Source: an uncultured Pseudomonadales bacterium
GTDB taxonomy: Bacteria > Pseudomonadota > Gammaproteobacteria > Pseudomonadales > IMCC2047
Assembly: GCA_947258415.1 (NCBI GenBank)
Contig: CAMYIF010000005.1
Span: 1-47,435 of the forward strand
Direction: 5' to 3'
DNA: 47,435 nt
Shown here: piece after piece, positions 20,089-36,979 of the stretch
How the letters are laid out: each line of letters opens with the position of its first letter
Position numbering within the stretch: the first letter of the stretch is position 1
Position numbers and translations under genes: made by a program
Notes under the pieces: generated by a model
Database searches by the model: none
What the model saw: the letters and a program-made list of their open reading frames with translations, nothing else
What the model was told of the DNA's origin: nothing

Positions 20089-21603
20089 ATGAGCTTAGCC
20101 ATTATTTATTCGCGGGCAAAATACGGAATAGATGCCCCTCTGGTCACCGTAGAGACTCATTTATCGAACGGCTTGCCGAGTGTGTCCATTGTCGGCTTGC
20201 CAGAGGCCGCCGTTAAAGAAAGCAAGGATCGGGTGCGCAGCGCGATAATCAATTCGCACTTCGAATTTCCTGCGCGGCGCATCACTATCAACCTGGCGCC
20301 GGCCGATTTGCCCAAGGAAAGCGGGCGTTTTGACCTGGCAATAGCAATCAGTATTCTGGCAGCCTCTGGCCAAATCTCGAACAAACAACTCGAAAATTAC
20401 GAATTTTTGGGAGAACTTGCGCTTACCGGAAGTCTTCGGAAGGTTCAAAGCGCTTTACCTGCATCACTGCAATGCGCCAGCGAGCAACGGGTTTTGTTTA
20501 TCCCGAAAATGAACGCCAGCGAGGCCAGCCTGCCGGAAAAGGCGCGCGTGTTGGCGGTTAGTCATTTGCTCGATGTTTGCGCGCACCTTGACGGCCGGCA
20601 AACGCTCGAAGATTTTCATCCCTGCATGGAGTCTTCTCCGGCAGTCAGCAATCTCGACCTGAATGAAATAAAGGGACAATTCCAGGCAAAACGCGCGCTG
20701 GAAATTACCGCTGCGGGTGGCCACAACCTGCTGCTTATCGGACCCCCCGGCACGGGTAAAACAATGATCGCGTCCAGGCTACCAACCATTCTTCCAGAGT
20801 TGTCAGAAAAAGCAGCGATGGAGGTGGCAACAATAGGTTCCTTAACCAACCGGGTATTTTGTCCGTCTAACTGGCGGACACCGCCGTTCAGGTCCCCGCA
20901 TCACACTGCCTCGGCAGTTTCACTGGTCGGTGGTGGCAGCAACCCGAAACCCGGAGAAATTTCGCTGGCACACAATGGTGTCCTGTTCCTGGATGAACTG
21001 CCCGAATTTGATCGCAAGGTCCTTGAAGTGCTACGCGAGCCCATTGAAGCCGGTGAAATTATTATTTCTCGCGCAAATCACCAGGCAAGGTTTCCGGCCA
21101 GGTTCCAACTGATTACCGCCATGAACCCGTGCCCGTGCGGTTACCTTGGCGACGCGAAAAGCAGTTGCCGTTGTACCCCTGACAAGATCAGGCGTTACCG
21201 GCAACGCATTTCGGGTCCATTGCTCGACCGCATCGACATGCACCTGGAGGTGATGACAAATACCCGGGAATTATTAACCGATGGCATGGACCTGGAAGCA
21301 TCAAGCGCTGTGGTAAAAAGTAGAGTAATCGATGCCCGGCAAAGGCAAATCGAACGCCAGGACTGCATTAACAGCGATTTGACCATCAAGGAGATTGAAA
21401 GGGTCTGCAAACTTGGCGCGGAAGATACCGATCTGCTGAGGCAGGCAATCGATAAACTTAACCTTTCAGCCCGGGCGTATCACCGAGTACTCAAAGTCGC
21501 TCGTAGCATTGCCGATTTAGCCAACTCTGAGCTGATAAAAAGCATTCATTTAATGGAAGCTTTAGGCTATCGGAAAATGGACAGGATGAACGATTATTAC
21601 TAG
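20089..21603 (+). CDS. comM: YifB/ComM Mg-chelatase-like AAA+ ATPase
   Basis: IVGLPEAAVKESKDRVR, GPPGTGKT, PFRSPHH, LFLDELPEF, ISGPLLDRID. Confidence 0.95.
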   Translation: MSLAIIYSRAKYGIDAPLVTVETHLSNGLPSVSIVGLPEAAVKESKDRVRSAIINSHFEFPARRITINLAPADLPKESGRFDLAIAISILAASGQISNKQLENYEFLGELALTGSLRKVQSALPASLQCASEQRVLFIPKMNASEASLPEKARVLAVSHLLDVCAHLDGRQTLEDFHPCMESSPAVSNLDLNEIKGQFQAKRALEITAAGGHNLLLIGPPGTGKTMIASRLPTILPELSEKAAMEVATIGSLTNRVFCPSNWRTPPFRSPHHTASAVSLVGGGSNPKPGEISLAHNGVLFLDELPEFDRKVLEVLREPIEAGEIIISRANHQARFPARFQLITAMNPCPCGYLGDAKSSCRCTPDKIRRYRQRISGPLLDRIDMHLEVMTNTRELLTDGMDLEASSAVVKSRVIDARQRQIERQDCINSDLTIKEIERVCKLGAEDTDLLRQAIDKLNLSARAYHRVLKVARSIADLANSELIKSIHLMEALGYRKMDRMNDYY

Positions 21604-23348
21604 CCGGTTACCGGCTGGATCTGTGCCTGCATTTTTTCTTTTTGCTTTAACAGGCTCTTGCAAATATTACTGAATGGAATGGCCTCCTGGTAAAAATAAC
21701 CCTGCACCTGGTCGCAATCGTTTTCACGAAGCAGGGCCAATTGCTGTAAATTTTCTACGCCCTCCGCAATCACATGCATGCCCAGGTTATGTGCCAGGTT
21801 AATAATGGCTTTGACAATCACGGCATCACCCGCCTCATTGACGGCATTCTGGACAAAACTTTTGTCTACTTTTAGCGCAGTAATCGGCAGGCCTTGAAGA
21901 TGGGCAAACGATGAATACCCCGTGCCAAAATCATCCAGCGAAAAGTGCACACCCAGGTTACTCAAATCGTCCATACAGCGACGCGTTTCTCCTTCGCTGG
22001 CCATCACCGCCGTTTCTGTTAACTCGAATTCGAGGAAGCGGGCGTCAACCTGGGTTTTTTTAATTATCCTGGAAACTGTTTCTTTTAATTTTTTGTCCTG
22101 GAACTGGCGAAAAGATAGATTGACGGCGATTCGTACGAAAAAGCCCTGGTCCTGCAAATATTTAAGGCCCAGGCAAGCTTGATGAATCACCCAGTAACCC
22201 ATGGAAACAATTAACCCCGACTCCTCTGCCAGCGGGATAAATTCGTCAGGCGTCAACATACCCCGGTCCGGGTGCTGCCAACGTATTAAACCTTCCATGC
22301 CGACAATTTCGCCACTGTCTATATCTACCCGCGGCTGAAATAACAGGCGAAACTCGTTGCGTCTCAGGGCACGCCTGAACTCGGCCTCCATAACCAGTTG
22401 ATTGGACGCATTCGTGCTTAATTCACGCGAATAAAAACAAAAACTCGATCCCTGCTCTTTTTTTGCCTGGCTGACAGCAAGGTTAGCTGCCCGCATCAGT
22501 GCTTCAGCGTTCTGGCCACTGGTCGGGTAAAAAGCGATGCCGATACTGCTGGTTAAATATACCTGGTCACCGGGCACGGTGTAGGGTTTACCAAGCTCGT
22601 CGCTAATCTGGTGCACCATCCTCAGGACATCTGACTCTTCCATCACACCTTCGAGAATAATGGCAAACTCATCACCGCTATTACGCGCCAGGCTGTCACT
22701 TTTTCGAATACAGGATTGCACCCGATCGGCCGCAGTCCGGATCACTATGTCACCGGCTTCACGCCCGTAAGTATCATTGACTCCCTTGAATTTATCCAGA
22801 TTCAAGGCAAGCAAAACTACTTTTTGTCGCGATCGTTCCGCCCTTTGTAACGCATGGGTAAGGCGATCATTGAACAGTGTCCGGTTGACCAGGCCCGTCA
22901 GGGCATCGTAATGATCGTGATAATCGAGTTTGACTTGCGCGTCTTTTAACTGCAGGACATAGCGCAGGGAGCGCTCGAGCGAGATAACATCCAGTGAACC
23001 CTTATCGAGGTAATCGGCAGCACCTGCCTTGATCAACGAAGAACCCAGGGCAGCGTCCATGTCAGAGCTGACAATAATAATTTGCGCCGAGGGGTTAAGT
23101 GATTTAACTTCGCTGAAAAAATCCGTATCGCCTTCAGTACCCAGGTAGTACTCGGTAATAATTATATCGTACGGCTGACTGCTCAATTTTCTGAGTGCCT
23201 TGCCAACGGTGCGACACCAGGTCAGCTTGTGGGTGAGGCCGTCAATCTGGCGGAGAGTATAATCCAGATGCAGTTTCTCGGAGTGCTGCTCGTTGACAAG
23301 TAAAATGCGAACCTGGTCGCCCTGTAAACACTGCTCTAGTAAGCCCAT
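21600..23348 (-). CDS. Receiver-like + GGDEF(SGDEF) + EAL protein, likely c-di-GMP phosphodiesterase
   Basis: N-terminal REC-like fold; DALTGLVNR, RNSGDEF; EGLIRW, ELTE, DDFGTGYSS, AEGVE. Confidence 0.9.
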   Translation of the reverse strand: MGLLEQCLQGDQVRILLVNEQHSEKLHLDYTLRQIDGLTHKLTWCRTVGKALRKLSSQPYDIIITEYYLGTEGDTDFFSEVKSLNPSAQIIIVSSDMDAALGSSLIKAGAADYLDKGSLDVISLERSLRYVLQLKDAQVKLDYHDHYDALTGLVNRTLFNDRLTHALQRAERSRQKVVLLALNLDKFKGVNDTYGREAGDIVIRTAADRVQSCIRKSDSLARNSGDEFAIILEGVMEESDVLRMVHQISDELGKPYTVPGDQVYLTSSIGIAFYPTSGQNAEALMRAANLAVSQAKKEQGSSFCFYSRELSTNASNQLVMEAEFRRALRRNEFRLLFQPRVDIDSGEIVGMEGLIRWQHPDRGMLTPDEFIPLAEESGLIVSMGYWVIHQACLGLKYLQDQGFFVRIAVNLSFRQFQDKKLKETVSRIIKKTQVDARFLEFELTETAVMASEGETRRCMDDLSNLGVHFSLDDFGTGYSSFAHLQGLPITALKVDKSFVQNAVNEAGDAVIVKAIINLAHNLGMHVIAEGVENLQQLALLRENDCDQVQGYFYQEAIPFSNICKSLLKQKEKMQAQIQPVTG

Positions 23349-23526: not shown

Positions 23527-23976
23527 TTATTTACTATTATCCAGCATATATTTGATAGCCGCCTTGATATCGTCATCCGAACAACTGGCGCATGTTCCAC
23601 GAGGGGGCATTGCACCTTTGCCGGCTATGGCGCTTTTCGTTAAGCCATCAAGCCCGGCACCACTTCTCGCTTTCCATGCTGCGGCGTCGCCAAACTTGGG
23701 CGCACCTGCTACACCGGTACCATGGCAACCAAAACAGCTTGCTTTATAAATATCTTCTCCGGAACGAGCAGCAGAACTTGCCGCCGGTGTAGAGGCAACT
23801 GCTATATTTCCACAATCCTTGCCTTCTACACAAACTTCACCTGCGGGTTTAATTCGATCAATGATTGCCTGATCCTGGCTCTCGGCAGAATTAACGGAAA
23901 CACCGGACAAGAGGCCAATAAAAAGTATCATTGTTAGGGAAATGAGTTTAATGCCATTAATTTTTATGCGATTCAC
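23527..23976 (-). CDS. Cytochrome c5
   Basis: Signal peptide, IDRIKPAGEV, CFGCH, GAMPPRGTCASC; start placed at GTG 23976 after GAGG. Confidence 0.9.
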   Translation of the reverse strand: MNRIKINGIKLISLTMILFIGLLSGVSVNSAESQDQAIIDRIKPAGEVCVEGKDCGNIAVASTPAASSAARSGEDIYKASCFGCHGTGVAGAPKFGDAAAWKARSGAGLDGLTKSAIAGKGAMPPRGTCASCSDDDIKAAIKYMLDNSK

Positions 23977-24364
23977 TACAACTACCTCGTTATAAATCAG
24001 ATGAAAATGTGCCATTGCAGGCACATTAACTTTTGAAAATTAATCAGGATATACCTGCGAGTATAACGATTATTGGCGTATTGGAAAATAAAAAGATGCC
24101 GGTTGTTTATTTTCAAATACTTTATGCATGCCCGGAATGAACTCTTTTGCATACTTTCAGGGTTAAAAATAATTCCTGGCTTCGGCTCGAAACCCTGATT
24201 GATATCGATATCTCCAATTAAATGAAACGGCACCGGGGCGGACGAATTCCAAAACTTTACAGCGAGCAATACCCTCGTTATCGCAGTGAATGCAGGCGAC
24301 TCGCCCAGTGATAATTATCGCCTGGCAGCACAGGCAGGCGATACCATCAGGCAAGGACTGTTGA

Positions 24365-24393: not shown

Positions 24394-24409
24394 TGCGTTT
24401 CCTGAAATT

Positions 24410-24486
24410 GCGCCCGTAGCTCAGCTGGATAGAGTAGTGGCTTCCGAAGCCATTGGTCGCAGGTTCGAATCCTGCCGGGCGCGCCA
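24410..24486 (+). tRNA. tRNA-Arg(CCG)
   Basis: Cloverleaf GCGCCCG...; anticodon arm GTGGC-TTCCGAA-GCCAT; GGTTCGAATCC; encoded CCA; 77 nt. Confidence 0.97.
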
Positions 24487-24550
24487 AAAATTAAATGTAC
24501 ATGGGCCCTATTGTGTATAAAATGGTGCCTGCATTTAATACTTCAATTAC

Positions 24551-24627
24551 GCCTCCGTAGCTCAGCTGGATAGAGTAACCGGCTTCGAACCGGTTGGTCG
24601 GGAGTTCGAATCTCTCCGGGGGCGCCA
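24551..24627 (+). tRNA. tRNA-Arg(TCG)
   Basis: Acceptor GCCTCCG/CGGGGGC, anticodon arm ACCGG-CTTCGAA-CCGGT, T arm GGGAG-TTCGAAT-CTCTC, encoded CCA; 77 nt. Confidence 0.95.
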
Positions 24628-24693
24628 TATTTTGATCCTGAGAATTTCCTTATAGGCTGTTGTGCTTGCAGAAGCTGGCAATTAGAGACAGGT

Positions 24694-27600
24694 CTAGACT
24701 GTGTTCTTGTTAAAAACCAGGAATGATTTTTCAAATTCTTCCGCAGAAACAGGCTTGCCGAGATAATAACCCTGCATGTAGTTACATTTTTTCTCGGTTA
24801 AATATTCTTTCTGCAATTTGGTTTCAACACCTTCGGCAATGACTTTTACGCCCAGGCTATGCGCCAGGGTGATAATGGTGGTAACAATGTCGCCATCGAC
24901 TTTATCGCTGGTGATATTCGATACGAAGGCGCGGTCAATTTTCAACAGGTCGATGGGGAATTTTTTCAAATAATTCAGCGATGAATAACCCGTACCGAAA
25001 TCATCAATTGCCAGCATAACCCCCATATTTTTAAGCTGTTTAAGCGTTTCAATAACCTGTTCAGCGTTTTTCATAATGGTGCTTTCGGTAATCTCCAGCT
25101 CCAGGAAATGGGCAGGCAAACCGGTCTCATTGAGTATTTCTGCAACGTGAGTCGTTATATCACCTTTATCGAGCTGACGCCCGGCCAGGTTGACCGCTAT
25201 CCTGATCGGTGACTGACCCTTGTCCAGCCACTGCTTCAACTGCGCGCAGGCTTCTCTCATAACGAATTCACCCAATTCAAAAATCTGCCCCGTTTCTTCG
25301 GCCAGTGGTATGAACTCCATTGGGCTAACCAGGCCGCGCTCCGGATGTTGCCAACGCACCAGCGCCTCCATGCCGATCAACTCCCCGGTTTGAAGGTCTT
25401 CCTGTGGTTGGTAATAAACAACCATTTCATTTCGGGCAATGGCGCCGCGCAAATCAATTTCTATCCCCAGGCGACGCGCAACATCTGCTTCCATTTTTTG
25501 TTCATAAAACTCGTAACAATTTCCTTTTTCCTTGGCTCGGTACATAGCGATGTCGGCATTTTTTAGCAATACACCAATTTCTTCTCCGTCGTTCGGGTAT
25601 AACGAAATGCCGATACTGGTTTTTACGTGCATTTCCTTGCCCAGGAAAACGAACGGTCGCGACAGGGTATCGTGAATTTTTGAAGCAATTTTCTCTACGG
25701 CCGAGAATGACTTTATCCTGTTCAATACGATGGTGAATTCATCGCCGCCAAACCTTGAGACAATATCCCCTTGCCTGAGGCATCGTTGCAGGCGCTCGGC
25801 GACGACCTTGAGCAACAGGTCACCGGCATCATGACCGAAGGTGTCGTTCACCAGCTTGAAGCGATCCAGATCAAGAAACAGGATCGCAGCCATATTTTCT
25901 TCTGACATCTCTTCGAGAGTTTTCGTTAATTGCTCGGTAAACAGTGTCCGGTTTGGCAAACCGGTAAGGGTATCGTTATAGGCGAGCTTAAGCACATGTT
26001 TTTCAGCTCGACTGGCCTGCAGAATACGCGCGATACGTTTGCGAAGTACGGCAAAATTAACCGGTTTGGATATGTAATCGGTCGCCCCCGCCGCAAAGGC
26101 CCGACCAATGGATGTTTCATCGTTAAGGGAGGTAATGATCAGCACCGGGACATGCTTGCCGCCAGCCAGGGACTGAATTTCCGAACAGGCCTTGAAGCCA
26201 TCCATTTCAGGCATAATGGCATCCATGAGTACAAGTTCAGGCAAAAAGCGTTCACAGTAAGCCAGTGCCTGCTCTCCATTGTTTACATGGTCGACACGAT
26301 ATCCATCCTTTTCCAGCACTTTTCGCATGGCAAAACGCATGCCGCGATCATCGTCGACTATTAGTATTCTCTGCTGGCTATGATCCATGGCCGGGCTTTC
26401 GCTAATACCATAGAGCAGCTCATACGACTGATCCTGTTCGGCAGGATCTTTATCGGGACGGACTTTTCTTTCCAGTGCAAGCTGCAATAGTCCACACTCA
26501 GCGATAACCTTATCCATTAATTCTTCAACGCCCTGGTTATCACTCGCCCTGCTTTTAGCTTCGAGCTCGGCGCATACTTTGGTGAGGCGATGCGCACCGA
26601 AATTACCGGCAGCGCCCTTGATGCTGTGGGCAAAATCTCCGCTGGCCTGACTATCCTTAACCTTGACAGCATCTTTCAGTGAACGAATATAGGAAGGCAT
26701 ATCGTCAAGGAATACCTTGACCATTGTTGGCAGGGCAGCGCCAATTTGCTTGCGCAATTCATTGAAAACCTGCACGTCGATTACTTCATTGTCTACCTCT
26801 TTTACATCACAGACTGCGACCTCATTTTCCGAACTGATATTCCCGGTTTCGGCGCTAACAAATTCTTTAACTTCAAGCCACTTGCTCAGGGTAGCCCGCA
26901 GGCACTCAAGTTTTAAAGGTTTGGGCAAATAATCGTTCATTCCAACAGCAAGGCATTTTTTGCTTTCGCCTTTTTGAACATTCGCGGTCATGGCAACAAT
27001 CGGCACCCTGGAAGAATCGGTTTCAAGGCGCCTGATTTGCGAGGTCGCCTCATAACCATCCATTTCTGGCATATGGCAGTCCATGAGAATCAGGTTGAAT
27101 GTTTCCCTGGAAAGAATTTCCAGTGCTTCGCGTCCATTATTTACATAAGCCGATTTACACCCCAGTCGCTCCAGCATTCCGCTTGCGACTTGTTGATTGG
27201 CTCGATTATCTTCGACAATCAATATCTTGTTGCCGCCAAAAGTTTCTATTTTACTCGTATTCGCATTCCCTCCATCGACCCGAGTATCCTTATCTTCAAC
27301 AAATTCAAGTTTGCGATACAATGCATCGATTTTGTCGGCCAGGTCTTTAAACAACACCGGCTTGGACAGGAAGCCGGCAATATTTAAACGGTGCGTGTCT
27401 TCGTAGGTTGGATTAACCCTGTTGACCATCATCAGGACTTTAGTATTTGCAATCGAAGGCTCGTTAACAATCAGGTGCGCAAGGTCAGAGCCTTTCAGGC
27501 CGGGCATGACTTCGTCCATCAATACAAGGTTATAATTTTGATGATTTGCTGCCGACAATCGGAGTTTATCCAGGGCAACCGCACCATTCTCCGCGATATC

Positions 27601-29232
27601 GTAGGGAATTTTTAGTCGTTCCAGCATGCCGCCCAGGTAACGACGGTTGAGCGGGCTATCGTCGACTACAAGCACGCGCAACTTCTCCGGCTCGGATATC
27701 GTTTCGTGGCTGGGCACAGGCGCGTCAACCTGGACCGGAACCGGCAGGGTAAACCAGAATTCGCTGCCTTTACCCTGTTCGCTTTCAACGCCGATTTCAC
27801 CCCCCATAAAATGTATAATTTGCCTCGATATAGCCAACCCCAATCCCGTCCCGCCATACTTCCGCGTGGTAGAACCGTCTGCCTGGGAAAAAGCTTCAAA
27901 TATTTTTTCCCTGACTTGTTCCGTCATCCCTATACCTGTATCGGTAACCTTAAATAAAAGCTCGAGATGATCCTCGTGCTTCTGTTTCAGACTGACCTCG
28001 ATTCCCACTTCACCCCGATCGGTAAACTTAAGCGCATTGCCAACCAGGTTAATTAATACCTGGCGCAAGCGTCCAATGTCGCATTGCAAGTTGACGGGAA
28101 CCTCGCTGCCCAGGATATAAGCGATATCGATATCCTTACGTTGCGCCTGGGTACTAAGCAATAAGATAATATCCTCGAGCAGGGCATCCAGATCAAACGA
28201 CACATTTTCAGAATTAATTTTCCCCGAGTCGATCTTGGAGAAATCGAGAATATCGTCAATTAAAAGCAACAATGATTCTGCGGAATCACTGGCAATATCA
28301 ATATACTCGGTCTGCTTTTCGTTTAAGCCCATGTCTTCGAGCAACTCGAGCATACCCAGCACGCCGTTTAACGGAGTGCGCAATTCATGGCTTACATTTG
28401 CAGCGAATTCGCCTTTAACGCGCGCCGCCTCGAGCGCCAAATCCCGGGTTCCCCTGAGCTCCTCTTCGCGTGCGTCCAGCACGTTCATCATCTGGTTAAA
28501 CGCAATTTCCATTTCAATGACGTCGCGCGTACCCTTGATATCGGCCCGGATATCTTTTTCACCCTCTTTGGCGCGGCCCATGATGGTTGCCAAGTCCCTT
28601 ATCGGGTTAGTTATACGCGTGGTAATTGCTAAAAGTATAACAAGCAGCAATGCGGCAAGGGCCAGCGATACCAGCAGGTTGTAACGGAAAATATCTGCTT
28701 CCATACGATGTATGGATTCTTTGCCCAGCACAATTCGCACATAACCGACCAGTTCGGCCTGCGCCTCCTGGCCTAAAAAGGGTGAATCATCTTCAACCTG
28801 GGTACCGGTATAAACGGGCGAAACAAAATGCCAATGCTCGCTGTTTTCCGAGACAAGGCTCAATGAATCTGGCCAACTCGAATCTTGTTCCAGTTGGTTA
28901 ACTTTTTTGTCGGTTCCGTAGAGGAGTTTTTTCTCGTTATCGAAAATGCTTACTTCTACCAGGTCTGGAAAAGCAAGCATGGTGTCAGCTATGTACTTGG
29001 CTTCTGATTCGCTGAGGTAGAGCAGGGAAACGCGACTGCGTTCTGCAGTCGTTTTAGTCAGGTTTAAACCTTCCTGCAGCAATCGATCGCTAACCGAGCG
29101 AGTGGACAGCGTTGTCGTCACCATAGTAGTGATTAACGCAAGCAGTAAAATCCCGATGCTAAAGGTCCAAACCAGAAGCTTTCTGAATCCTACGCGATTA
29201 ATCCATTTATTTGGTAACGATTTCATGGTCAT
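24694..29232 (-). CDS. Membrane hybrid sensor: 2TM/periplasmic-HAMP-HisKA-HATPase-REC-REC-HPt-REC-GGDEF-EAL
   Basis: SHELRTPLNG, NLVGNALKFT, DTGIG, GGTGLGL; three receivers (LMDEVMP, LMDCHMP, LMDAIMP, each with KP); HPt AHSIKGAAGNFGA; RFGGDEF; EALVRW, DDFGTGYSS. Confidence 0.93.
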   Translation of the reverse strand: MTMKSLPNKWINRVGFRKLLVWTFSIGILLLALITTMVTTTLSTRSVSDRLLQEGLNLTKTTAERSRVSLLYLSESEAKYIADTMLAFPDLVEVSIFDNEKKLLYGTDKKVNQLEQDSSWPDSLSLVSENSEHWHFVSPVYTGTQVEDDSPFLGQEAQAELVGYVRIVLGKESIHRMEADIFRYNLLVSLALAALLLVILLAITTRITNPIRDLATIMGRAKEGEKDIRADIKGTRDVIEMEIAFNQMMNVLDAREEELRGTRDLALEAARVKGEFAANVSHELRTPLNGVLGMLELLEDMGLNEKQTEYIDIASDSAESLLLLIDDILDFSKIDSGKINSENVSFDLDALLEDIILLLSTQAQRKDIDIAYILGSEVPVNLQCDIGRLRQVLINLVGNALKFTDRGEVGIEVSLKQKHEDHLELLFKVTDTGIGMTEQVREKIFEAFSQADGSTTRKYGGTGLGLAISRQIIHFMGGEIGVESEQGKGSEFWFTLPVPVQVDAPVPSHETISEPEKLRVLVVDDSPLNRRYLGGMLERLKIPYDIAENGAVALDKLRLSAANHQNYNLVLMDEVMPGLKGSDLAHLIVNEPSIANTKVLMMVNRVNPTYEDTHRLNIAGFLSKPVLFKDLADKIDALYRKLEFVEDKDTRVDGGNANTSKIETFGGNKILIVEDNRANQQVASGMLERLGCKSAYVNNGREALEILSRETFNLILMDCHMPEMDGYEATSQIRRLETDSSRVPIVAMTANVQKGESKKCLAVGMNDYLPKPLKLECLRATLSKWLEVKEFVSAETGNISSENEVAVCDVKEVDNEVIDVQVFNELRKQIGAALPTMVKVFLDDMPSYIRSLKDAVKVKDSQASGDFAHSIKGAAGNFGAHRLTKVCAELEAKSRASDNQGVEELMDKVIAECGLLQLALERKVRPDKDPAEQDQSYELLYGISESPAMDHSQQRILIVDDDRGMRFAMRKVLEKDGYRVDHVNNGEQALAYCERFLPELVLMDAIMPEMDGFKACSEIQSLAGGKHVPVLIITSLNDETSIGRAFAAGATDYISKPVNFAVLRKRIARILQASRAEKHVLKLAYNDTLTGLPNRTLFTEQLTKTLEEMSEENMAAILFLDLDRFKLVNDTFGHDAGDLLLKVVAERLQRCLRQGDIVSRFGGDEFTIVLNRIKSFSAVEKIASKIHDTLSRPFVFLGKEMHVKTSIGISLYPNDGEEIGVLLKNADIAMYRAKEKGNCYEFYEQKMEADVARRLGIEIDLRGAIARNEMVVYYQPQEDLQTGELIGMEALVRWQHPERGLVSPMEFIPLAEETGQIFELGEFVMREACAQLKQWLDKGQSPIRIAVNLAGRQLDKGDITTHVAEILNETGLPAHFLELEITESTIMKNAEQVIETLKQLKNMGVMLAIDDFGTGYSSLNYLKKFPIDLLKIDRAFVSNITSDKVDGDIVTTIITLAHSLGVKVIAEGVETKLQKEYLTEKKCNYMQGYYLGKPVSAEEFEKSFLVFNKNTV

Positions 29233-30170
29233 CTATCAGGAAAAATCAAATTAAATTCCCGCATTTGGGAGCGGGTTATTTTTAACTTCAAATGCTCGGC
29301 CGTTCGCACGTTGACGGCAATTAATAGATTTTCCAATGCCTCGACTGTTTTACTTTCACCCCTGGCAACAAGTCCGGCCTTTTTTGACAGGCTTTTACCC
29401 ATCTGGATATTATCCGGGAACAGTGAAAATAATGCGCCACGCTTTACATGCGACGGGTTGCTCGAAAAAACAACCGTGTGCCGGTCCCATGCCTCACTCA
29501 TCAGCCTGGGTAACATGCCTTTTTCGTCCAGGGTTGGGTCCGCCTGTAATAGCCAGATTGCATCAGCCCCGCTTACCTGTTCACTCAGGAGTTTCTGGTA
29601 GGTTTTTGCAGCGTCTCGTGCACCATCGGCCGGCACAGTGACCAACTCCAGATCCAGTTCTTTTGCAGCCTTACTGGCCAATCTAACAAGCCAGCCGTTG
29701 CTTTCTTCGTGGTATACAACAGAAACACGACGAATATCAGGCACCAATTCCTTGAGCTTTGTAAACAGCATTTTCGGCGAAGGTGCCAATGATATCCCGA
29801 CTATTCCATGCTTAATATCCTTATCGGATAAAAGCGCTGCGCCTGTGACAACATTTAAACCGGTGGGTAACTGAGTTACAACAGATTTGACTCGGCTACC
29901 GAGAGAAATGACAACCTCGGGATTTGCTTTATTTAACCAGCTTTCCAGCTCTTCGATATCATCGCCTGCCCGAATTGCGTACATCCGGACCTTGCCATTT
30001 GCCTCGCGCGAAATACCCTTGATGATATCGCCAAAAATACTACGATAGGGCTCGCGCACATCAGGGTATAACACGGCCAGTGTTGGCCCCCTGGCGTTAG
30101 CGCTTAAAGACAATATCAAAGCCGCTATAATACATAACGTTTTGAATGTCAGCCCAATTTTATTCTTCAA
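29229..30170 (-). CDS. Periplasmic ABC-substrate-binding-like protein (orphan, no permease/ATPase in the window)
   Basis: Signal peptide (SANA), LFTKLKELVPDIRRVSVVY, GALFSL, AVNVRTAEHLKL resembling ABC_sub_bind-type proteins; TTG start overlapping the upstream stop. Confidence 0.75.
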   Translation of the reverse strand: MKNKIGLTFKTLCIIAALILSLSANARGPTLAVLYPDVREPYRSIFGDIIKGISREANGKVRMYAIRAGDDIEELESWLNKANPEVVISLGSRVKSVVTQLPTGLNVVTGAALLSDKDIKHGIVGISLAPSPKMLFTKLKELVPDIRRVSVVYHEESNGWLVRLASKAAKELDLELVTVPADGARDAAKTYQKLLSEQVSGADAIWLLQADPTLDEKGMLPRLMSEAWDRHTVVFSSNPSHVKRGALFSLFPDNIQMGKSLSKKAGLVARGESKTVEALENLLIAVNVRTAEHLKLKITRSQMREFNLIFPDR

Positions 30171-32290
30171 CCCCGTTCCCTTTTCCGTAACTCGGATAAA
30201 TTCTTTTTATTAGGTACACAAGAGCACTTTCTGACTTCGGCGAACACACTGCGTCCTGCCTGAGGTAAATCACCGGGTATAGCAACTGTTCCTGTGAGGG
30301 GGTCGTAGAGCGATGGCTCCAGCACCTTGTCATCGGTCAAATTGCGAATCGAAACAGCAACGCTGAGGCCATACGCCAGTTTTTTGCCCCTGAGGGTAAG
30401 GTCAATGGTCGTATAGTCATCAATATCACTACGCATATCACCTGAAGCACGTTTTCTGTCCATCACATGATTGAGCTGGGTATTGATCGACCAATAGTGC
30501 GATAACTCAATATTGGCCTGCAGGTAAATTTGATGTTGCGGTGCATTTGCCGCATCGGTATCGGTCTGTTCATCCTCCGATTTCTGATAGGCGTAGTTAC
30601 CTTTTATTTTCAGCCTGCGCATTGCATCCCAATCAAATTCAAGCTCAAGACCATGGCCAGTCTGGTTGCCGGAATTCTGGGCTACCGGCGTAAACCGGAT
30701 GATGTCCAGGAATTCGTAATAAAACAGGTTCATGCCAAACCGCAGGTCGCTGGTATGGTTGTAGTCAAATGCCAGTTCGTAGGTATCGATCCTTTCAGGG
30801 TCCAGGTTGGGATTACCGATGGCAATCGGGTTGGCCTGGTTAAACTGTTCGGCAAAGGAGGGCGCCCGAAATGCCGAACCGTATAAAAACTTGCTGGTCA
30901 GGTCGATGGTCGTATCCCAAACCAGCGCGAGACGTGGATTGGTCGTGGTACCAAAATCAGAATAATCATCAATTCTCAAACCGGCTGTCAGTGACCAGTC
31001 GCGGACAAAATCCCATTCGTCCTGAACAAAAACATACCTGACTGTTCGGTCCTCTTCCCGGTTAAAAATGGCCGCGCCACTGACGGGCATCACTGAACCC
31101 AGAAATGGCGGCGGGAACCCTGCACCAAAGTTTTTAGATTCTTCGATTCGGTATTGATCCAGCAGGTGATAGCCGGTGCCAATGCGAATCACATGATTTT
31201 CAAAACCGGTATAGAAGGTCGACAGGTCAAAACGGTAGTGCCGCTCGTAGTAGTCGGGGTTCCCGATAACCCCGTTAGGGAATGTGCCAAAGGCACCCGG
31301 AGGGTAGAGTTCCAGGTCCAGTTGCGTGGCCACATCATAAAAGCTGAAGCGGGTTTCCAGCTCCCAGTGTTCGTAGATTTCCGGATTTAGGTAAGTCACA
31401 TCCAGGTTGAACCGGTCGCTATTGCCTTCACCTTCGGTGTCCAGCGCTTGCGCTGCGCCACTACCGGTTTCAATATCTCGCCGTCCCTGGTAGCCCAGGC
31501 GAATACGCCAATACTCCTTGCTCAGGTCGATACGGGCATCGATGGATTCCCTGCCGGTATTGACACCACCAGGGGCCAGCGAGGCAGATGTTGCGAACAG
31601 GCCGTCAAAAGCAGTCTGGGCATCGGCGCCTATTTTTTCGTCATGACCTGAGGTATCGAGCAATTCCAGCGAAAATGCCACATCCCAACCTCTGACTTCA
31701 GTCCCGTAAAGGGCCCATGCTCGATGCTCATCGAAGCTGCCCGCCGAAATACCGGTTTCAACGCCATTAATTTCGTCGGCTGTTTTGGTGACAATATTGA
31801 TGGTACCGGCAAAGGCATCGGCGCCGTAGACGGCAGAACCCGGTCCGCGGATAACCTCAATCCTGGAAATATTTTCAACCGGCATCCCGCCCCAGGCTTC
31901 ACCCCTGTTGCCAAAAAGCAACTGGGTGGTTGGTATACCATTGATCAGCACAAGTACTTGCGGGTTAAATTCGGAATAGATTCCCCGGAAAGTAAAAATC
32001 GGCTCATAACCGGCGCCTTTCCTGGCGACATGAACGCCGGGCACCGATTCGAGTACTTCTGTTATGTCCCTGGCTCCCGTCTGCTGAATTTCTTCGGCCG
32101 TAATCAGCGTGGTAACCGCTGGCGCTTTTGAAATTAGTTGTTTTCTGCCAGTAGCGATGGAAACAAAATCCTCATCGCCGTACGAAAGTAATAAATCATT
32201 TCCTTCTACAACCTGATTTCCATATCCGTATTGGGAAAAACCGAGCAGGCAAATAATGCCACCCAAAAAGCACGGAATGTGATTTTTCAT
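30167..32290 (-). CDS. TonB-dependent outer membrane receptor
   Basis: Signal peptide, plug motifs (APAVTTLITAEEI, RIEVIRGPGSAVYGADAFAGTINIVTK), barrel motifs (AFRAPS, NPNLDPE, IRNLTD, GRSVFAEV). Confidence 0.93.
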   Translation of the reverse strand: MKNHIPCFLGGIICLLGFSQYGYGNQVVEGNDLLLSYGDEDFVSIATGRKQLISKAPAVTTLITAEEIQQTGARDITEVLESVPGVHVARKGAGYEPIFTFRGIYSEFNPQVLVLINGIPTTQLLFGNRGEAWGGMPVENISRIEVIRGPGSAVYGADAFAGTINIVTKTADEINGVETGISAGSFDEHRAWALYGTEVRGWDVAFSLELLDTSGHDEKIGADAQTAFDGLFATSASLAPGGVNTGRESIDARIDLSKEYWRIRLGYQGRRDIETGSGAAQALDTEGEGNSDRFNLDVTYLNPEIYEHWELETRFSFYDVATQLDLELYPPGAFGTFPNGVIGNPDYYERHYRFDLSTFYTGFENHVIRIGTGYHLLDQYRIEESKNFGAGFPPPFLGSVMPVSGAAIFNREEDRTVRYVFVQDEWDFVRDWSLTAGLRIDDYSDFGTTTNPRLALVWDTTIDLTSKFLYGSAFRAPSFAEQFNQANPIAIGNPNLDPERIDTYELAFDYNHTSDLRFGMNLFYYEFLDIIRFTPVAQNSGNQTGHGLELEFDWDAMRRLKIKGNYAYQKSEDEQTDTDAANAPQHQIYLQANIELSHYWSINTQLNHVMDRKRASGDMRSDIDDYTTIDLTLRGKKLAYGLSVAVSIRNLTDDKVLEPSLYDPLTGTVAIPGDLPQAGRSVFAEVRKCSCVPNKKNLSELRKRERG

Positions 32291-32375
32291 TAACCCTCAC
32301 CTCAACTTACTGGGTATTACACCGAATATTTACAAACTTATTTTTATAGCTGTTTCATTAGTTTAGTCGGTATTT

Positions 32376-33188
32376 CTAGTTTTCCCATTTCCTTTGAGGT
32401 TTTCCTTCGTATGAAATGCGCTTGCACCTGAGCGGGAAGAAGGTTCCGGCGGGTTTATCAACGGCATCGATGTAACAGGCCATCATGCCAGCAGAATATA
32501 TCACAGCGCCCATTCGATAAAACTCTTTAGCTGTCAGCCCCTGATCTGCATATAACGCTGATGCAAAACCAGCGATATTGAGTTTCGTTCTATAGCGCAT
32601 TTTGATAAGTATTTTTTCTATTTCAAAGGCGAGCTTTACATGCGGGCCGTCGGAAGCACCCAACTCTTCCGCCAACCTTAATGCAACAGGAACCCTTTCA
32701 TCATTATTGGTTATTGGCCGACCAAAACCATAGGGCACGTTTTTACTAGCATCTATTTCATGCTTAACGACATCTACCAGTTCCTTGCCTTCGTCCACTA
32801 CTAATGTTTTAACCCGTGTAATAAAGTCCGCAGCAGCAAAACTTGCTTGCCCTCCGAAAAATTTGCTTTCAGATATCGCGGTTCCACAGGCTATTGCTAA
32901 CATACCCGTTGTTTTGGCAGATCCCGATATTGCCGCAACCCGATTGTTCCAGATTCTCGGTTCGGGGAAGCTGGTGCAAATGGCCCAGGTTCGGCTAAAA
33001 AGCTCGATTTGTTTTTTGCTAAGAAACTTGCCGGTGATGCTAAAAAACCAGATTTCAACCCAGTCTTTATCAAAAAATTCGGTAAACACATCCAGGCCCC
33101 TGAACACCACCCGTTCGCCCGCAAACCAGGCACCCATATCGGTTTCCCAGTTGTCTTCTCTCTCGATTAAAGTATCCGGTCCTTTCAT
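32376..33188 (-). CDS. Citrate synthase/citryl-CoA lyase-fold protein B, catalytic residues divergent
   Basis: RVVFRGLDV, FFGGQA, PYGFGRP, DERV, LNIAG align by eye with the YRG, HGGA, GFGH, DPR and NVD motifs of the fold. Confidence 0.7.
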   Translation of the reverse strand: MKGPDTLIEREDNWETDMGAWFAGERVVFRGLDVFTEFFDKDWVEIWFFSITGKFLSKKQIELFSRTWAICTSFPEPRIWNNRVAAISGSAKTTGMLAIACGTAISESKFFGGQASFAAADFITRVKTLVVDEGKELVDVVKHEIDASKNVPYGFGRPITNNDERVPVALRLAEELGASDGPHVKLAFEIEKILIKMRYRTKLNIAGFASALYADQGLTAKEFYRMGAVIYSAGMMACYIDAVDKPAGTFFPLRCKRISYEGKPQRKWEN

Positions 33189-34036
33189 TTGTTTATCTTT
33201 TCGAGATTATCTTTAACAGGTCCGGGATCGTTGGAAAGCTTTAACCCATCGGCAAAAAACGGGTATTTAGCCAGGCCATTATGCCTTTGTTCAAGCGCAT
33301 GCGCGCCTGCGCCGGGTAGTCGCAGAATCATAAACAGCATTTCAGCCTGCTCGTCCGTGAAGCCCAAATCGATAAAAGCAGCTGCGATTACTCCTACCAT
33401 AGCCAAGGGATTTCCGCTAAAGCCTTCAACGGATTCCCTGTTTTGTTTTAACCACTGCAATTGGCCTGCTTCCCCGATCTCGATCGACGACAGGTAATCC
33501 AGGGTTTGCTTAACGGGTGTTGAACAACTGCTACCGTAAGGATCAAAACCCGGGATATGCTCGATGTCCGGCCACGCTTTTACATCATCCTGTTTTTCAT
33601 AATTAGTCAGTTTATCCTGCCAAATTGCCAAATCCTTTCCACAGGTATTAATTAACCTGATGGCCAAAAACATTTCCCGGGCACCACCATATTGCCCGGA
33701 ACCGGGCCCAAGTGCGCCAATCAGGCAAGATGCAGCAATAGACCCACCTGCACCCCCGCTCATGGCAGCCCTGACACTTAGGTCGCGAGGCCCGGGATTT
33801 GCCAATGCTACGGCGACTCCTTCCAGAAGCTTTGTTTGAGTTTTTGAGGGTGGCTCAAGTTTGAAGAGAAGGTACAGATACTCGACCCAGCTGACTTTTC
33901 CCAGCAGGTCGCCGTAGACGTCAAAACCCGAGCAATAGCAGGCTTGTGCAGCGAAGGGATTATCGGGTTCGGGGATTTCTTGCCAGATTTTACTGTGAAT
34001 GACATCTTTTTGCCTAGGCTTGCCCGCGTCCGTCAT
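33185..34036 (-). CDS. Citrate synthase/citryl-CoA lyase-fold protein A, catalytic residues divergent
   Basis: GFDVYGDLLGK, NPGPR, YGGARE, IPGFDP, RLPGAGAHALEQ (like RxxGxxAHxxE of citryl-CoA lyases). Confidence 0.72.
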   Translation of the reverse strand: MTDAGKPRQKDVIHSKIWQEIPEPDNPFAAQACYCSGFDVYGDLLGKVSWVEYLYLLFKLEPPSKTQTKLLEGVAVALANPGPRDLSVRAAMSGGAGGSIAASCLIGALGPGSGQYGGAREMFLAIRLINTCGKDLAIWQDKLTNYEKQDDVKAWPDIEHIPGFDPYGSSCSTPVKQTLDYLSSIEIGEAGQLQWLKQNRESVEGFSGNPLAMVGVIAAAFIDLGFTDEQAEMLFMILRLPGAGAHALEQRHNGLAKYPFFADGLKLSNDPGPVKDNLEKINK

Positions 34037-34042
34037 CGCGTT

Positions 34043-35914
34043 TTATTTCAATCCATTTATGCGGGTAGCCAAGGGTGGCACTTCGTCAGCATCGATAACG
34101 ACATCAATAACGGTTGGTCCATTGCGTTTCAATATCGCCTCGATGTTCAGTTCGTGTAGTTCATCAGGCTTGGTAATCTGGTAACCTGGAATGCCCATGG
34201 ATTCTGCCAGTTTTGCGTAATTAGCAGCGGGCAATTGATGGCCGATGCTTGCAGATTTATTCATGATTTGTCCATGCTTGACCATACCCAGTGACGAGTC
34301 ATTCATAATCAGGAAGGTCACTTTCAGGTTATTTTGTAAGGCCACGGTGATTTCATTGCCGTACATCAGGAAGCCGCCGTCACCAATGATGCAAACTATG
34401 TGTTCATCCGGATTTGCCAACGACGCGCCAATGGCACTACCCACCGACCATCCCATCGAGCAGAAATCTGTGCACACCTGGAACAGCCCGCCATGTTGAT
34501 GCCGCCGACCGTCTTCATACCAGCGATCAAGTGATCGACGCTGACCCAACCGCCGGTCGAAAGGGTTCAGGTAATGTATTGCCCAGGCAAGGTTGTTACC
34601 TGCGTCTGCAAAGTATTTTGTATGAGCAGGGAAGATTTTCGTCAACTGGTGCATCAGCCACTGGGGTTTGATCGGCACCGAGTCATCAAAGATTTTTCGA
34701 GGCTCATCCAGGGTAAAATGCATGATATCATCGTATTTGGAATCATCTTTTTTGGCATTTTCCAGCCGTTCGCTTAATTCAATACCACTTTGAAGGCTGG
34801 TGTTTTGGGTAATGCCCTGGATAATCAGTTCATCCAGCACCTTGCTGAAAATGGAGAGAATATTTCCCCTGACATGCAGTTTTGCCATCGGTGTGCGAAT
34901 AAGGTTTGCCTCATCCGCTTCCACGTGGATAAGCCGATCATTCAGCAGTGTGTCTGCATCCCAGGCATTGCTGTTGAATTCGCCCAAAGAGGTTCCCACG
35001 GCGACCACGGTTTCAACTTCGGGATCGGCAAGCGCTTCATTGGCGCTTTTATGTCCGGCGAAACCAATCACACCCTTAAACTGCGGGTGGTAAGGGCTGA
35101 TAAAGCTTTTAGCATCGGGCATGGCGACAACCGACGAGCCCAGCAGACAAGCAATATCTATAATTAAACTTGCCGCGTCCCTGGTGCCGACGCCAAGAAC
35201 AAATACAACCTTTTTACCCTTCGACAACTGTTTGCAGAGCTCTGTTACAGCCTCTTTATCCTGCATTAACGGTCGCTTAACGGCTTTGTTTAAATCATAG
35301 GACGGCCCGTGTTGAGGCAAGCTTGCCTTTAAAATATCAGAAGGGATACTTAAATGCACTGGACCGTAGGGTGGGCGCAGGGCTGTCATAATGGCCGAAA
35401 TTAATTTGTTTTCAAGCTGGCCGATATGACTGACGAAGGAATTATAGAGTGTACAAAATTGATACATACCGACCACATTGACGCCGGTATCGCCTGACTC
35501 CTGCAAGGCTTTACGGCCAAACTTATCATGGACAGTTTGTGGCGTAATCACCAAGAGGGGAACGTTGTTCTCGTAAGCCGAAGCAACGCCGGTAAGCATG
35601 TTGGTTGCCCCCGGGCCTGTGGTTGAGCAACATACACCCAGATGGCCCGAGTTTTTTGCATAGCCACTAGCCATGAATGCAGCGCCGGTTTCGTGCCGGG
35701 CGATGATTGAGCGAATGCCATTGCTTGCTTCGCTTCGGGCCAGGGCATTGTAAAGCGCTTCTATTGCGCCACCCGGTATGCCAAACACATACTCGACATC
35801 GATTTGCTCAAGGTATTGGAGGATCAGGTCAGCGACGCGGACTTCCAGTTCGACACTTGACACGCTCGGGTCATCAAGAGACTTTTTGGCCAGGCCAAGC
35901 GCGTTTATACCCAT
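34043..35914 (-). CDS. Thiamine-diphosphate-dependent enzyme (acetolactate synthase/acyloin carboligase-like)
   Basis: VFGIPGG, ARHETGAAFMA (catalytic Glu), TTGPGATN, GDGGFLM...MNDSSLGMV ThDP-Mg motif; no ilvH/ilvC neighbours. Confidence 0.9.
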   Translation of the reverse strand: MGINALGLAKKSLDDPSVSSVELEVRVADLILQYLEQIDVEYVFGIPGGAIEALYNALARSEASNGIRSIIARHETGAAFMASGYAKNSGHLGVCCSTTGPGATNMLTGVASAYENNVPLLVITPQTVHDKFGRKALQESGDTGVNVVGMYQFCTLYNSFVSHIGQLENKLISAIMTALRPPYGPVHLSIPSDILKASLPQHGPSYDLNKAVKRPLMQDKEAVTELCKQLSKGKKVVFVLGVGTRDAASLIIDIACLLGSSVVAMPDAKSFISPYHPQFKGVIGFAGHKSANEALADPEVETVVAVGTSLGEFNSNAWDADTLLNDRLIHVEADEANLIRTPMAKLHVRGNILSIFSKVLDELIIQGITQNTSLQSGIELSERLENAKKDDSKYDDIMHFTLDEPRKIFDDSVPIKPQWLMHQLTKIFPAHTKYFADAGNNLAWAIHYLNPFDRRLGQRRSLDRWYEDGRRHQHGGLFQVCTDFCSMGWSVGSAIGASLANPDEHIVCIIGDGGFLMYGNEITVALQNNLKVTFLIMNDSSLGMVKHGQIMNKSASIGHQLPAANYAKLAESMGIPGYQITKPDELHELNIEAILKRNGPTVIDVVIDADEVPPLATRINGLK

Positions 35915-36115
35915 TCAAGCTCTCAGTTATAGTTATCTTTTCAGGAAATACTCAAACCAACAGACGCGCCCCCAGCACCATGGGGGACAAAATATAATGA
36001 AACGCCCAGCCTATGCAAGCCTAACTTATTGAATTAACGAAAATTCACAGAAGTTTCGTTATTTAAATCCCTATTATTATCGGCTTTACTCATGTCGACT
36101 TGATGGCAATTTGGT

Positions 36116-36979
36116 TTAGTGAAAAGCGTTGAAATGCAATGGTAGCTCGACTTCCATAGCGATAGGAAGGTGGTCAGAAGTGCAGCAGGGCAATACTTCC
36201 GCATGCTTGATGTTCAAGCTTGGGCTGACCAGAATATGGTCCAGATGATGGGTTGGTCGCCAACTGGGATATGTATTGAATGTTCCTGTTGCCGATTTTA
36301 ATTTGATCTCGGATAAGGGTGACAGGTTTAAAATATGGTCAGCACCACTATTCAGGTCGCCCATAATAATGACATGCTTGAAATCGGAGATTATTTCTTT
36401 CACGTATGATAATTGGTTTTGCCTGGCACGGGCACCCAGAGACAAGTGAAGTACAACCAGGACCAGCGGGTTATCAGCGGTACCAAAATGAGCCACGATG
36501 GCACCACGTCCCGGTATCAGGCCGGGCAGCTTATAGTCTTCGATTCGTTGCGGGCGCAGTTTACTCAACACGCCATTGCTGTGTTGCCCCCACTTACCCA
36601 GGTTGCGGTTGAGTTGCTGATACCAATAAGGGAATCCTGCGCTACATGCCAAATACTGAACCTGGTTTGTGTACCCACTTCTCCGGCTGCCACCATCAGC
36701 TTCCTGAAGGGCAACAAAGTCAAATCGGGCCAGTTGAGCCGCGATGGCATCAAGGTTTTTTGTTCTGCGTGGGTGCGGCAGCAAGTGCTGCCAACCTCGG
36801 GTCAGGTAATGACGATACGCAGCACTCTGGATGCCAACCTGTATGTTGTGGCTTAACAGCTTAATCGTTTTCCTGTTTTGGTTAAAAACATGACTCTCTT
36901 GCACTTGACGAAACGACGCCACGGAGACAGGTGCGGCCTCGGCGGATTTTGATAGATGAGGAGTCAAATGTCTTAGCAT
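36116..36979 (-). CDS. Endonuclease/exonuclease/phosphatase (EEP) family protein
   Basis: LSHNIQVG, VALQEAD, MGDLN, LDHILVS, SDHLP; conserved position after dsbA. Confidence 0.9.
   Translation of the reverse strand: MLRHLTPHLSKSAEAAPVSVASFRQVQESHVFNQNRKTIKLLSHNIQVGIQSAAYRHYLTRGWQHLLPHPRRTKNLDAIAAQLARFDFVALQEADGGSRRSGYTNQVQYLACSAGFPYWYQQLNRNLGKWGQHSNGVLSKLRPQRIEDYKLPGLIPGRGAIVAHFGTADNPLVLVVLHLSLGARARQNQLSYVKEIISDFKHVIIMGDLNSGADHILNLSPLSEIKLKSATGTFNTYPSWRPTHHLDHILVSPSLNIKHAEVLPCCTSDHLPIAMEVELPLHFNAFH

Follow-up and report, generated by a model that had tools for sequence, protein, structure and literature searches.

Paired citrate-synthase-fold proteins that lack the His/His/Asp catalytic set and accompany a thiamine diphosphate-dependent enzyme

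Why should two adjacent bacterial genes keep the fold of citrate synthase and citryl-CoA lyase when both have lost the residues with which those enzymes work? The question is raised by a gene pair on contig CAMYIF010000005.1 (GCA_947258415.1) of an uncultured Pseudomonadales bacterium, which was analyzed as a window of 47,435 nt; the window is the whole stretch of DNA considered here, and all coordinates are positions in it. Protein A (33185..34036, minus strand, 283 aa) carries the motifs NPGPR, xGGARE, EHxPGFDP and RLPGAxxHxxEQ, and protein B (32376..33188, minus strand, 270 aa) carries PEPRIWNNR, (Y/F)G, G(Y/F)GRP...DER and NIAG. Read directly, the stop codon of A and the start codon of B share the four bases ATGA. 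In the list of open reading frames (ORFs) the two belong to a series of six tightly spaced minus-strand genes that encode a thiamine diphosphate (ThDP)-dependent enzyme, A, B, a TonB receptor, a binding protein and a hybrid kinase. Relatives of A and B are named 'citryl-CoA lyase', 'citrate synthase' or 'citrate/2-methylcitrate synthase' by the source databases. Our results leave little doubt that the pair is not a citryl-CoA lyase and that this database name is wrong, and they point to a heterodimer tied to the ThDP enzyme.

The assignment of the fold was clear for both proteins. AlphaFold2 models of A and B reached predicted local distance difference test (pLDDT) values of 84.4 and 85.9, and the top Foldseek match of each was the Hydrogenobacter citryl-CoA lyase 6hxp (A: E 7.4e-9, template modeling (TM) score 0.65/0.71; B: E 4.1e-9, TM 0.74/0.78). 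The citryl-CoA lyase cores of ATP-citrate lyases ranked next for both proteins, and citrate/methylcitrate synthases followed. Curated sequence models were less accommodating. Only B passed the citrate synthase family PF00285 (32.1 bits, with A at 17 bits and the cut-off at 27), and neither protein reached the cut-off of any NCBIfam citryl-CoA lyase model (NF004864, NF004866, NF004868, NF004869). The cut-offs of these models lie between 193 and 261 bits; the best score of A was 53.3 bits against a cut-off of 212, and that of B was 53.7 against 245. In the ESM Atlas, B retrieved no clusters other than its own, which are unnamed or called 'citrate synthase'. The two proteins are also remote from each other, with 32% identity over only 81 residues by BLASTP (E 5e-6), and an hhalign comparison of the two family profiles related them with 95% probability at 21% identity.

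The alignments located the missing residues. In a HMMER alignment of A with 6hxp (E 3.5e-9), DHG was replaced by NPG and aHGGA by qYGGA, GYGhRY became GFD-PY, and lNVDGa was reduced to am--vGv, which places the Asp of NVDG in a gap. B was aligned with the citrate synthases 2h12 and 4xgh, and the B-family profile with 6hxp (E 9.4e-10); here HGGA became FGGQA, GFGH or GYGH became GFGR, and NVD became NIA. In pig citrate synthase the catalytic residues of these motifs are His274 (the His of HGGA), His320 (the His of GxGH) and Asp375 (the Asp of NVD).

The same substitutions recurred throughout the relatives, of which we compared 55 for A and 60 for B, taken from the top 120 in listings of 2481 and 412 matches, respectively. 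Not one A relative had a His at position 116 or 166 or an Asp at 212-215 (0/55 each), and no B relative had a His at 111 or 157 or an Asp at 206 (0/60 each). In their place, position 116 of A was Y, N, L, F or A in 55/55, position 111 of B was Y, F or L in 60/60, and position 206 of B was A, G, T or S in 60/60. The replacement motifs were as constant as the losses: in the GFDP motif of A both D and P were present in 54/55, and the R of the B motif G(Y/F)GR was present in 60/60. Residues N80, G82, R84, E121, R239 and H246 of A were found in all 55 relatives, with H160 and D165 in 54/55, while R78, W80, N82, R157, R165, N204, C238 and C255 of B were found in all 60. A distant A clade (loci L021-L027) differed from this picture. 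It keeps the first His as 'HLGA', its second motif reads GFG[TS][RH], and R239 is absent, so that the loss in A is specific to a clade and not universal. Loss of the catalytic residues is a trait of the family, and the genes are not decaying, as the number of B-type clusters and the dN/dS values given below also indicate. The original prediction, which was made from the DNA letters without database searches, thus held at this level. It had described the ATGA overlap, the citrate-synthase fold, the strong dissimilarity of A and B and the absence of the His/His/Asp set from both, had warned that an automatic citryl-CoA lyase annotation would probably be wrong, and had proposed to map the conservation of the replacement motifs, whose new residues proved to be fixed in the relatives compared.

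B stood out by how it evolves. Mean column identity was 68% for A and 50% for B, and between the close genomes of loci L003 and L006 the ThDP enzymes were 91% identical, A 73% and B 61%, so that the accessory pair diverges much faster than its neighbor. In a Cycloclasticus pair (L001/L002) dN/dS, the ratio of nonsynonymous to synonymous substitution rates, was 0.05 for A and 0.11 for B, rough values because dS was near saturation; for L003/L006 dS was saturated or undefined. Despite the faster overall evolution of B, its polar set (R78, W80, R157, D163-E164-R165, N204) was kept across both clades and in fusion proteins, which makes B look like the subunit with the conserved pocket. B-type proteins are numerous. 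A profile search of 1.84 billion representative proteins returned 149 clusters at E<=1e-30; relaxing the threshold to E<=1e-10 raised this to 367, and E<=1e-3 gave 774.

Do A and B act together? When they were co-folded with both family alignments, the interface score ipSAE was 0.80 (three runs, 0.79-0.80), compared with 0.00 for the best of three controls; the ipSAE mark that we applied was reached by 116/157 solved complexes and by 2/215 mismatched pairs. The runs agreed in at least 97% of contacts, with a partner pLDDT of at least 88. The predicted interface joins residues 83-118, 154-166 and 255-265 of A with residues 77-114 and 243-258 of B, and includes the new invariant motifs and crossing C-terminal arms. 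The proteins are thus predicted to dimerize through a helical interface in the manner of citrate synthases, which build their active sites from both subunits in just such an arrangement. Natural fusions provided independent support. P0245 and P0246 are single chains with A followed by B, only 28% identical to each other, and five of the 150 best B representatives (P0298, P0346, P0347, P0374, P0381) are further fusions of the same order. Taken with the fusions of the ThDP enzyme to A described below, these results make it very likely that A and B form a heterodimer.

The gene directly upstream of A, separated from it by 6 bases, encodes a ThDP-dependent carboligase-like enzyme (34043..35914, minus strand, 623 aa) with all three ThDP-enzyme domains. 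It is not an ordinary acetohydroxyacid synthase (AHAS): its score against the AHAS large-subunit model TIGR00118 was 277 bits, short of the cut-off of 538, and a true AHAS (855 bits) is encoded elsewhere in the genome, on contig C57. The ScyA-related models NF035927 and NF035923 also stayed out of reach (254 bits against 1000, and 223 against 1020). Its best solved relatives were BbmA (E 3.5e-78) and CsmA (E 2.4e-72), followed by E. coli AHAS I (E 5e-53). In a quick tree it grouped with other module-linked ThDP enzymes, apart from two outgroups, with a support of 98 in the Shimodaira-Hasegawa-like approximate likelihood ratio test (SH-aLRT). PMC12395478, which cites Liu et al. (Nat Chem 2025), calls CsmA and 'BpmA' homologues of CybE, and describes CybE as catalyzing the acyloin condensation of two 2-oxo acids to an alpha-hydroxy-beta-keto acid.

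The ThDP enzyme is also physically joined to A in nature. Four ThDP-A fusions of 870-886 aa are 53-81% identical to one another over their full length, and one of them was read as an uninterrupted ORF in locus L008. A fusion that is kept through such divergence is not an assembly error. With the synteny described below, which is kept across classes, the fusions make it highly probable that A and B are coupled to the ThDP enzyme. Separately, in L043 (5077-7758, genome G085) an open frame of 893 aa holds the ThDP domains at residues 309-864; the ~300 residues ahead of them match no Pfam family, and the frame may simply have been called too long.

Gene distribution agreed with such a partnership. 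We sampled 300 genomes evenly across the class and found matches to A in 30 of them, to B in 32 and to both proteins in 29. The two therefore occurred together in 29/33 genomes that hold either; of the four single matches, three were short fragments and the other came from a genome with 79% completeness. Orthologues of the ThDP enzyme (E<=1e-90) were present in 37/300 genomes, including 27 of the 29 with both A and B; in the two others the ThDP gene was cut by a contig end (L021) or broken (L026). An orthologue of the binding protein was present in 36/301 genomes and again in 27 of the 29. The unpublished genome G039 accounts for one positive in every one of these counts, and no other result depends on it. 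The original prediction had gone further and proposed an obligate heterodimer with a function linked to the ThDP enzyme. The multimer prediction that it suggested, the A-then-B fusions and this co-occurrence speak for the heterodimer, and the functional link is upheld by the ThDP-A fusions and by synteny. The word 'obligate' is not supported, because ThDP orthologues of the same clade occur without A and B.

We compared 25 related loci (L001-L003, L005, L006 and L008-L027; L004 and L008 are one contig). In 22 of them A adjoined a full-length B, the ThDP gene was present in 23 and the TonB receptor in 22, and no gene family beyond the module was common to more than a few. The A/B pair was nearly always beside the ThDP carboligase, usually together with the TonB receptor, the binding protein and a sensor kinase of the cyclic di-GMP (c-di-GMP) type. 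Gene order varied, with ThDP-receptor-A-B in the distant clade and a kinase that is sometimes split. In a sample of the phylum, B occurred in 11/401 genomes, nine of them in other classes, where A, B and the ThDP gene were again together. In one family of these other classes the trio was accompanied by receptor, binding protein and kinase. In two other families it stood beside a Ser/Thr-kinase-AAA-GAF-histidine-kinase protein and a LuxR-type regulator, as in L030 (8988-14797) and L031 (331-2292), where ThDP-A-B adjoins a 1727-aa protein of this kind and a LuxR-type response regulator. Kinases stand beside the trio even where the receptor set is replaced, which makes sensor kinases its recurring company. 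In L031 a GNAT acetyltransferase gene lies upstream of the trio, and an AMP-binding enzyme is encoded directly after B. The sources name Cycloclasticus, Nitrosococcus oceani (Noc_1268) and Methylogaea oryzae as cultivated carriers.

A few individual loci were irregular. In L026 (2968-14256; one complete contig of G044) the whole module is decaying: matches to the receptor, B and the ThDP gene fall into two or three shifted segments each. A, the binding protein and the portions of the kinase still seem intact. In G178, B is in two parts: 54 N-terminal residues remain beside A (L018 8813-8974), and residues 49-269 are encoded ~517 kb away on the same chromosome (L035 8001-8654). In G276 an ISL3 transposase and a cohesin/TSP3-repeat protein are encoded between receptor and B (L034 5295-7957), and an A-like gene is on another contig (L027). 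L020 (9717-13878) has two tandem copies of the TonB-dependent receptor gene after B.

Some genomes keep the ThDP enzyme and replace its partners. Of the 37 genomes that have a ThDP orthologue, ten had no intact A/B pair, and eight of these were inspected. In L039 (G193) the order was ThDP enzyme, short-chain dehydrogenase, 3-ketoacyl-acyl carrier protein synthase III (KAS III), receptor, kinase and binding protein; the KAS III protein matched PF08541 and PF08545, and its best PDB matches were FabH enzymes. In L042 (G043) a 131-aa ORF and a KAS III gene were situated between the ThDP gene and the genes of receptor, binding protein and kinase. The complete genome G018 (L041) had an S-adenosylmethionine (SAM) methyltransferase gene at this place, followed by receptor, binding protein and kinase. 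L044 (8896-11006) and L045 (8869-11012) had a ThDP orthologue without A and B beside a FIST-domain protein and a small HisKA-HATPase kinase, and in L046 the ThDP enzyme was encoded beside sucAB with no partner. L043 and L047 ended at contig borders. In the quick tree the ThDP genes of variant modules nested among those linked to A and B, with SH-aLRT supports of 99 for L041+L014, 100 for L046+L025 and 90 for L039+L013.

Citrate synthases and KAS III are both thioester-dependent enzymes that form C-C bonds, so an exchange of A/B for KAS III would be chemically sensible. The slot occupied by A and B is swappable, which fits an accessory enzyme that would act on the product of the ThDP enzyme and lends indirect support to the chemistry on the ThDP product that the original prediction proposed. 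PMC8777810 and PMC12395478 describe the furanolide synthase CybF, a member of the KAS III family, as converting the CybE product and an acyl-CoA to a lactone. The variant modules consequently resemble CybE/CybF pairs connected to the receptor and kinase genes that elsewhere accompany A and B, which would stand in the position of the second, acyl-CoA-using enzyme.

Starting from these observations, our working model is that the A·B pair is a heterodimeric accessory, or tailoring, enzyme docked to a CybE/ScyA-like ThDP carboligase, that it has given up His/His/Asp chemistry and probably uses an acyl-CoA, and that its product is sensed by the module. We consider the case for this model as a whole to be evenly balanced. 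We infer its substrates, its use of CoA, its reaction and the fate of its product as follows. The ThDP enzyme would join two 2-oxo acids to an alpha-hydroxy-beta-keto acid. This hydroxy-acid would then bind to A·B in the remnant of the oxaloacetate/citryl-CoA pocket at the subunit interface. On the B side, such a pocket would retain Arg165 of 'DER' and Asn204 and add the invariant Arg78, Trp80, Asn82 and Arg157; on the A side, it would retain Arg239 and His246 and add Asn80, Arg84, Glu121, His160 and Asp165. A·B would convert the hydroxy-acid by acyl transfer, condensation or cyclization, probably with acyl-CoA, and the product would be a small molecule taken up and sensed by the TonB receptor, the binding protein and the c-di-GMP sensor kinase. 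For the separate parts, we lean moderately toward a catalytic over a regulatory role of the pair, and slightly away from the use of CoA thioesters. The AMP-binding enzyme right after B in L031 is in line with the model.

Several observations weigh against it. The co-fold may reflect likeness and not binding, since homodimers of citrate synthase and citryl-CoA lyase have already been solved. The KAS III loci were weakly placed in the quick tree (L042 with a branch length of 2.28, L039 with a support of 90), and their KAS III proteins are family-level relatives of FabH, likened to CybF by family only. Citrate synthases carry basic residues ahead of 'NVD' and behind 'GFGH'; A has no conserved basic residues at these positions, and in B they are conserved in the main clade alone. 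That the two A clades share an active site is doubtful, because their polar residues differ, the distant clade having no R239 and a His274-like His. Loci L044/L045 and L046 have ThDP orthologues of the same clade without partner enzymes, which makes A and B dispensable for the ThDP enzyme. Moreover, the cluster contains no exporter and no acyl-CoA-forming gene, and among the related loci compared no acyl-CoA ligase was conserved.

The explanation that competes best with our working model is that A·B has no catalytic function and serves the ThDP enzyme as a regulatory or scaffolding pair, whose degenerate pocket would be at most an allosteric ligand site; AHAS small subunits, and the citryl-CoA lyase core that holds ATP-citrate lyase together, provide parallels. 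A scaffold could well have lost all three catalytic residues and been fused to the ThDP enzyme, its universally conserved residues in A would be mostly Gly, Pro, Ala and Leu, as they are, and many of the conserved motif residues do lie in the predicted A-B interface. However, the polar set of B that was kept in both clades and in the fusions fits a binding or active site better, and the slot is filled in variant modules by enzymes (KAS III, short-chain dehydrogenase, methyltransferase). ThDP orthologues also seem, from gene context, to work without a partner gene nearby. We regard a purely regulatory pair as unlikely.

A catabolic cluster is less probable still. Here the TonB receptor would import a compound, such as a 2-hydroxyacyl compound or hydroxy-keto acid, which the ThDP enzyme and A·B would cleave, while the binding protein and the kinase would report its presence. 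Citryl-CoA lyase and several ThDP enzymes are established lyases, and receptor, binding protein and kinase are indeed encoded together. Nonetheless, no inner-membrane transporter or further catabolic gene was conserved in 26 loci, the output of the kinase is c-di-GMP and not a transcription factor, the trio occurs without any receptor in other classes, and the nearest solved relatives of the ThDP enzyme are biosynthetic carboligases. That A or B is an ordinary citryl-CoA lyase or citrate synthase, as the database names and the PF00285 score of B would have it, is scarcely credible with the three catalytic residues missing from every relative compared, NCBIfam scores at about a quarter of the cut-offs, and no citryl-CoA synthetase in the gene context.

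Carried to its full extent, the working model leads to a more tentative proposal. The A·B pair may be a new acyl-CoA-dependent tailoring enzyme on the citrate-synthase fold, with a non-His/Asp site at the heterodimer interface, which together with the ThDP carboligase would make a group of small hydroxy-keto-acid-derived (butenolide- or acyloin-like) signals or metal carriers. These would be re-imported by the TonB receptor and read out as c-di-GMP, and exchange of the second enzyme (A/B, KAS III or methyltransferase) would create different chemical 'dialects'. We put this forward as a possibility that we ourselves doubt.

The remaining genes of the module follow B on the minus strand. The TonB-dependent receptor (30167..32290, 707 aa) begins 85 bases downstream of B, and no terminator-like site was found in this gap. 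It is followed by a periplasmic binding protein of the PF04392 family (29229..30170, 313 aa) and by a hybrid sensor kinase (24694..29232, 1512 aa) with HisKA-HATPase, three receiver domains, Hpt, GGDEF and EAL; neighboring genes among these three overlap by 4 bases. No ABC transporter genes lie alongside the binding protein. Its matches were generic or weak (the best being TrpX, 40.6 bits against a cut-off of 390), as were those of the receptor, and do not allow a ligand to be named. Scans of 24400-36300 for promoters and terminators gave 12 and 14 sites against 15.8 and 14.5 expected after shuffling, which is chance level; operon structure can therefore be deduced only from the short or overlapping gene spacing. 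No RNA read set is listed for 29000-36100 of the window; the only one listed is a DNA run from a marine sediment metagenome.

Directly downstream of the hybrid kinase are minus-strand genes for a cytochrome c (23527-24024) and a receiver-GGDEF-EAL protein (21600-23348); relatives in some of the related loci were seen for the second of these alone. An endonuclease/exonuclease/phosphatase-family gene (36116-36979, minus strand) lies upstream of the ThDP enzyme. Together with DsbA and cytochrome c4 genes it was common only to the two closest relatives (L003 and L006), and hence is not part of the module.

The literature within our search, which left subscription papers and supplements outside, held no description of the A/B pair or of the module, and no papers on the Noc_126x locus tags. 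Two papers that mention 'citryl-CoA lyase' (10.1101/540435, PMC7522526) proved unrelated to the pair. Taken at face value, the name 'citryl-CoA lyase' would put a false step of the reverse tricarboxylic acid cycle into metabolic models of hydrocarbon degraders, ammonia oxidizers and methanotrophs. If the working model is true, the citrate-synthase fold would have acquired new chemistry as a heterodimer that docks to a ThDP enzyme, and the six-gene module would be an uncharacterized make-import-sense circuit that controls c-di-GMP. Under the more tentative proposal above, it would amount to undescribed cell-to-cell or cell-to-environment signaling in Cycloclasticus, Nitrosococcus, methanotrophs and other Pseudomonadota. 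The cultivated carriers make the question directly testable.

Among known systems, AHAS offers a similar layout, in which a ThDP enzyme of the same superfamily as the present one is followed by small partner genes. The partners here, however, have the citrate-synthase fold and not ACT domains, the ThDP enzyme falls well short of the AHAS cut-off, and the genome has its own AHAS. The cyanobacterin (furanolide) pair CybE/CybF is another parallel. BbmA and CsmA, the solved structures closest to our ThDP enzyme, are described as CybE homologues, and a KAS III of the CybF family follows the ThDP gene in two variant modules at exactly the place of A and B. The scheme of a ThDP acyloin synthase with a second, acyl-CoA-using enzyme, as PMC12395478 and PMC8777810 present it, is the one on which our model is built. 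The likeness runs only through BbmA/CsmA and the family, however; the fold of A and B is unrelated to CybF, no acyl-CoA ligase is conserved in their cluster, and the genes linked with the pair encode a TonB receptor and a sensor kinase instead of tailoring enzymes.

The closest structural parallels are within the citrate synthase superfamily itself. Citrate and 2-methylcitrate synthases (PF00285) belong to the same fold family; B keeps the Arg of their 'D-P-R' motif (as DER) and the Asn of 'NVD', and A keeps the 'R..G..AH..EQ' helix. In contrast to them, A and B are ~100 residues shorter, are without the catalytic residues, and have the new invariant motifs NPGPR and EHxPGFDP (A) and PEPRIWNNR and GxGRP (B). 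The Hydrogenobacter thermophilus citryl-CoA lyase (6HXP) and the ATP-citrate lyase core share the short fold and include the best Foldseek and HMMER match of both proteins, and the predicted A-B dimer reproduces their helical subunit interface with crossing C-terminal arms. Even the ThDP-A fusions have a counterpart in ATP-citrate lyase, whose module is fused to the enzyme that feeds it. Unlike these enzymes, A and B have no His/His/Asp set, are two unlike subunits (21% identical by profile) instead of identical ones, have a ThDP enzyme and not citryl-CoA synthetase as their partner, and score far below the NCBIfam cut-offs. Catalytic residues and curated hidden Markov model cut-offs make them neither enzyme; by fold, they belong to the citrate synthase/citryl-CoA lyase superfamily.

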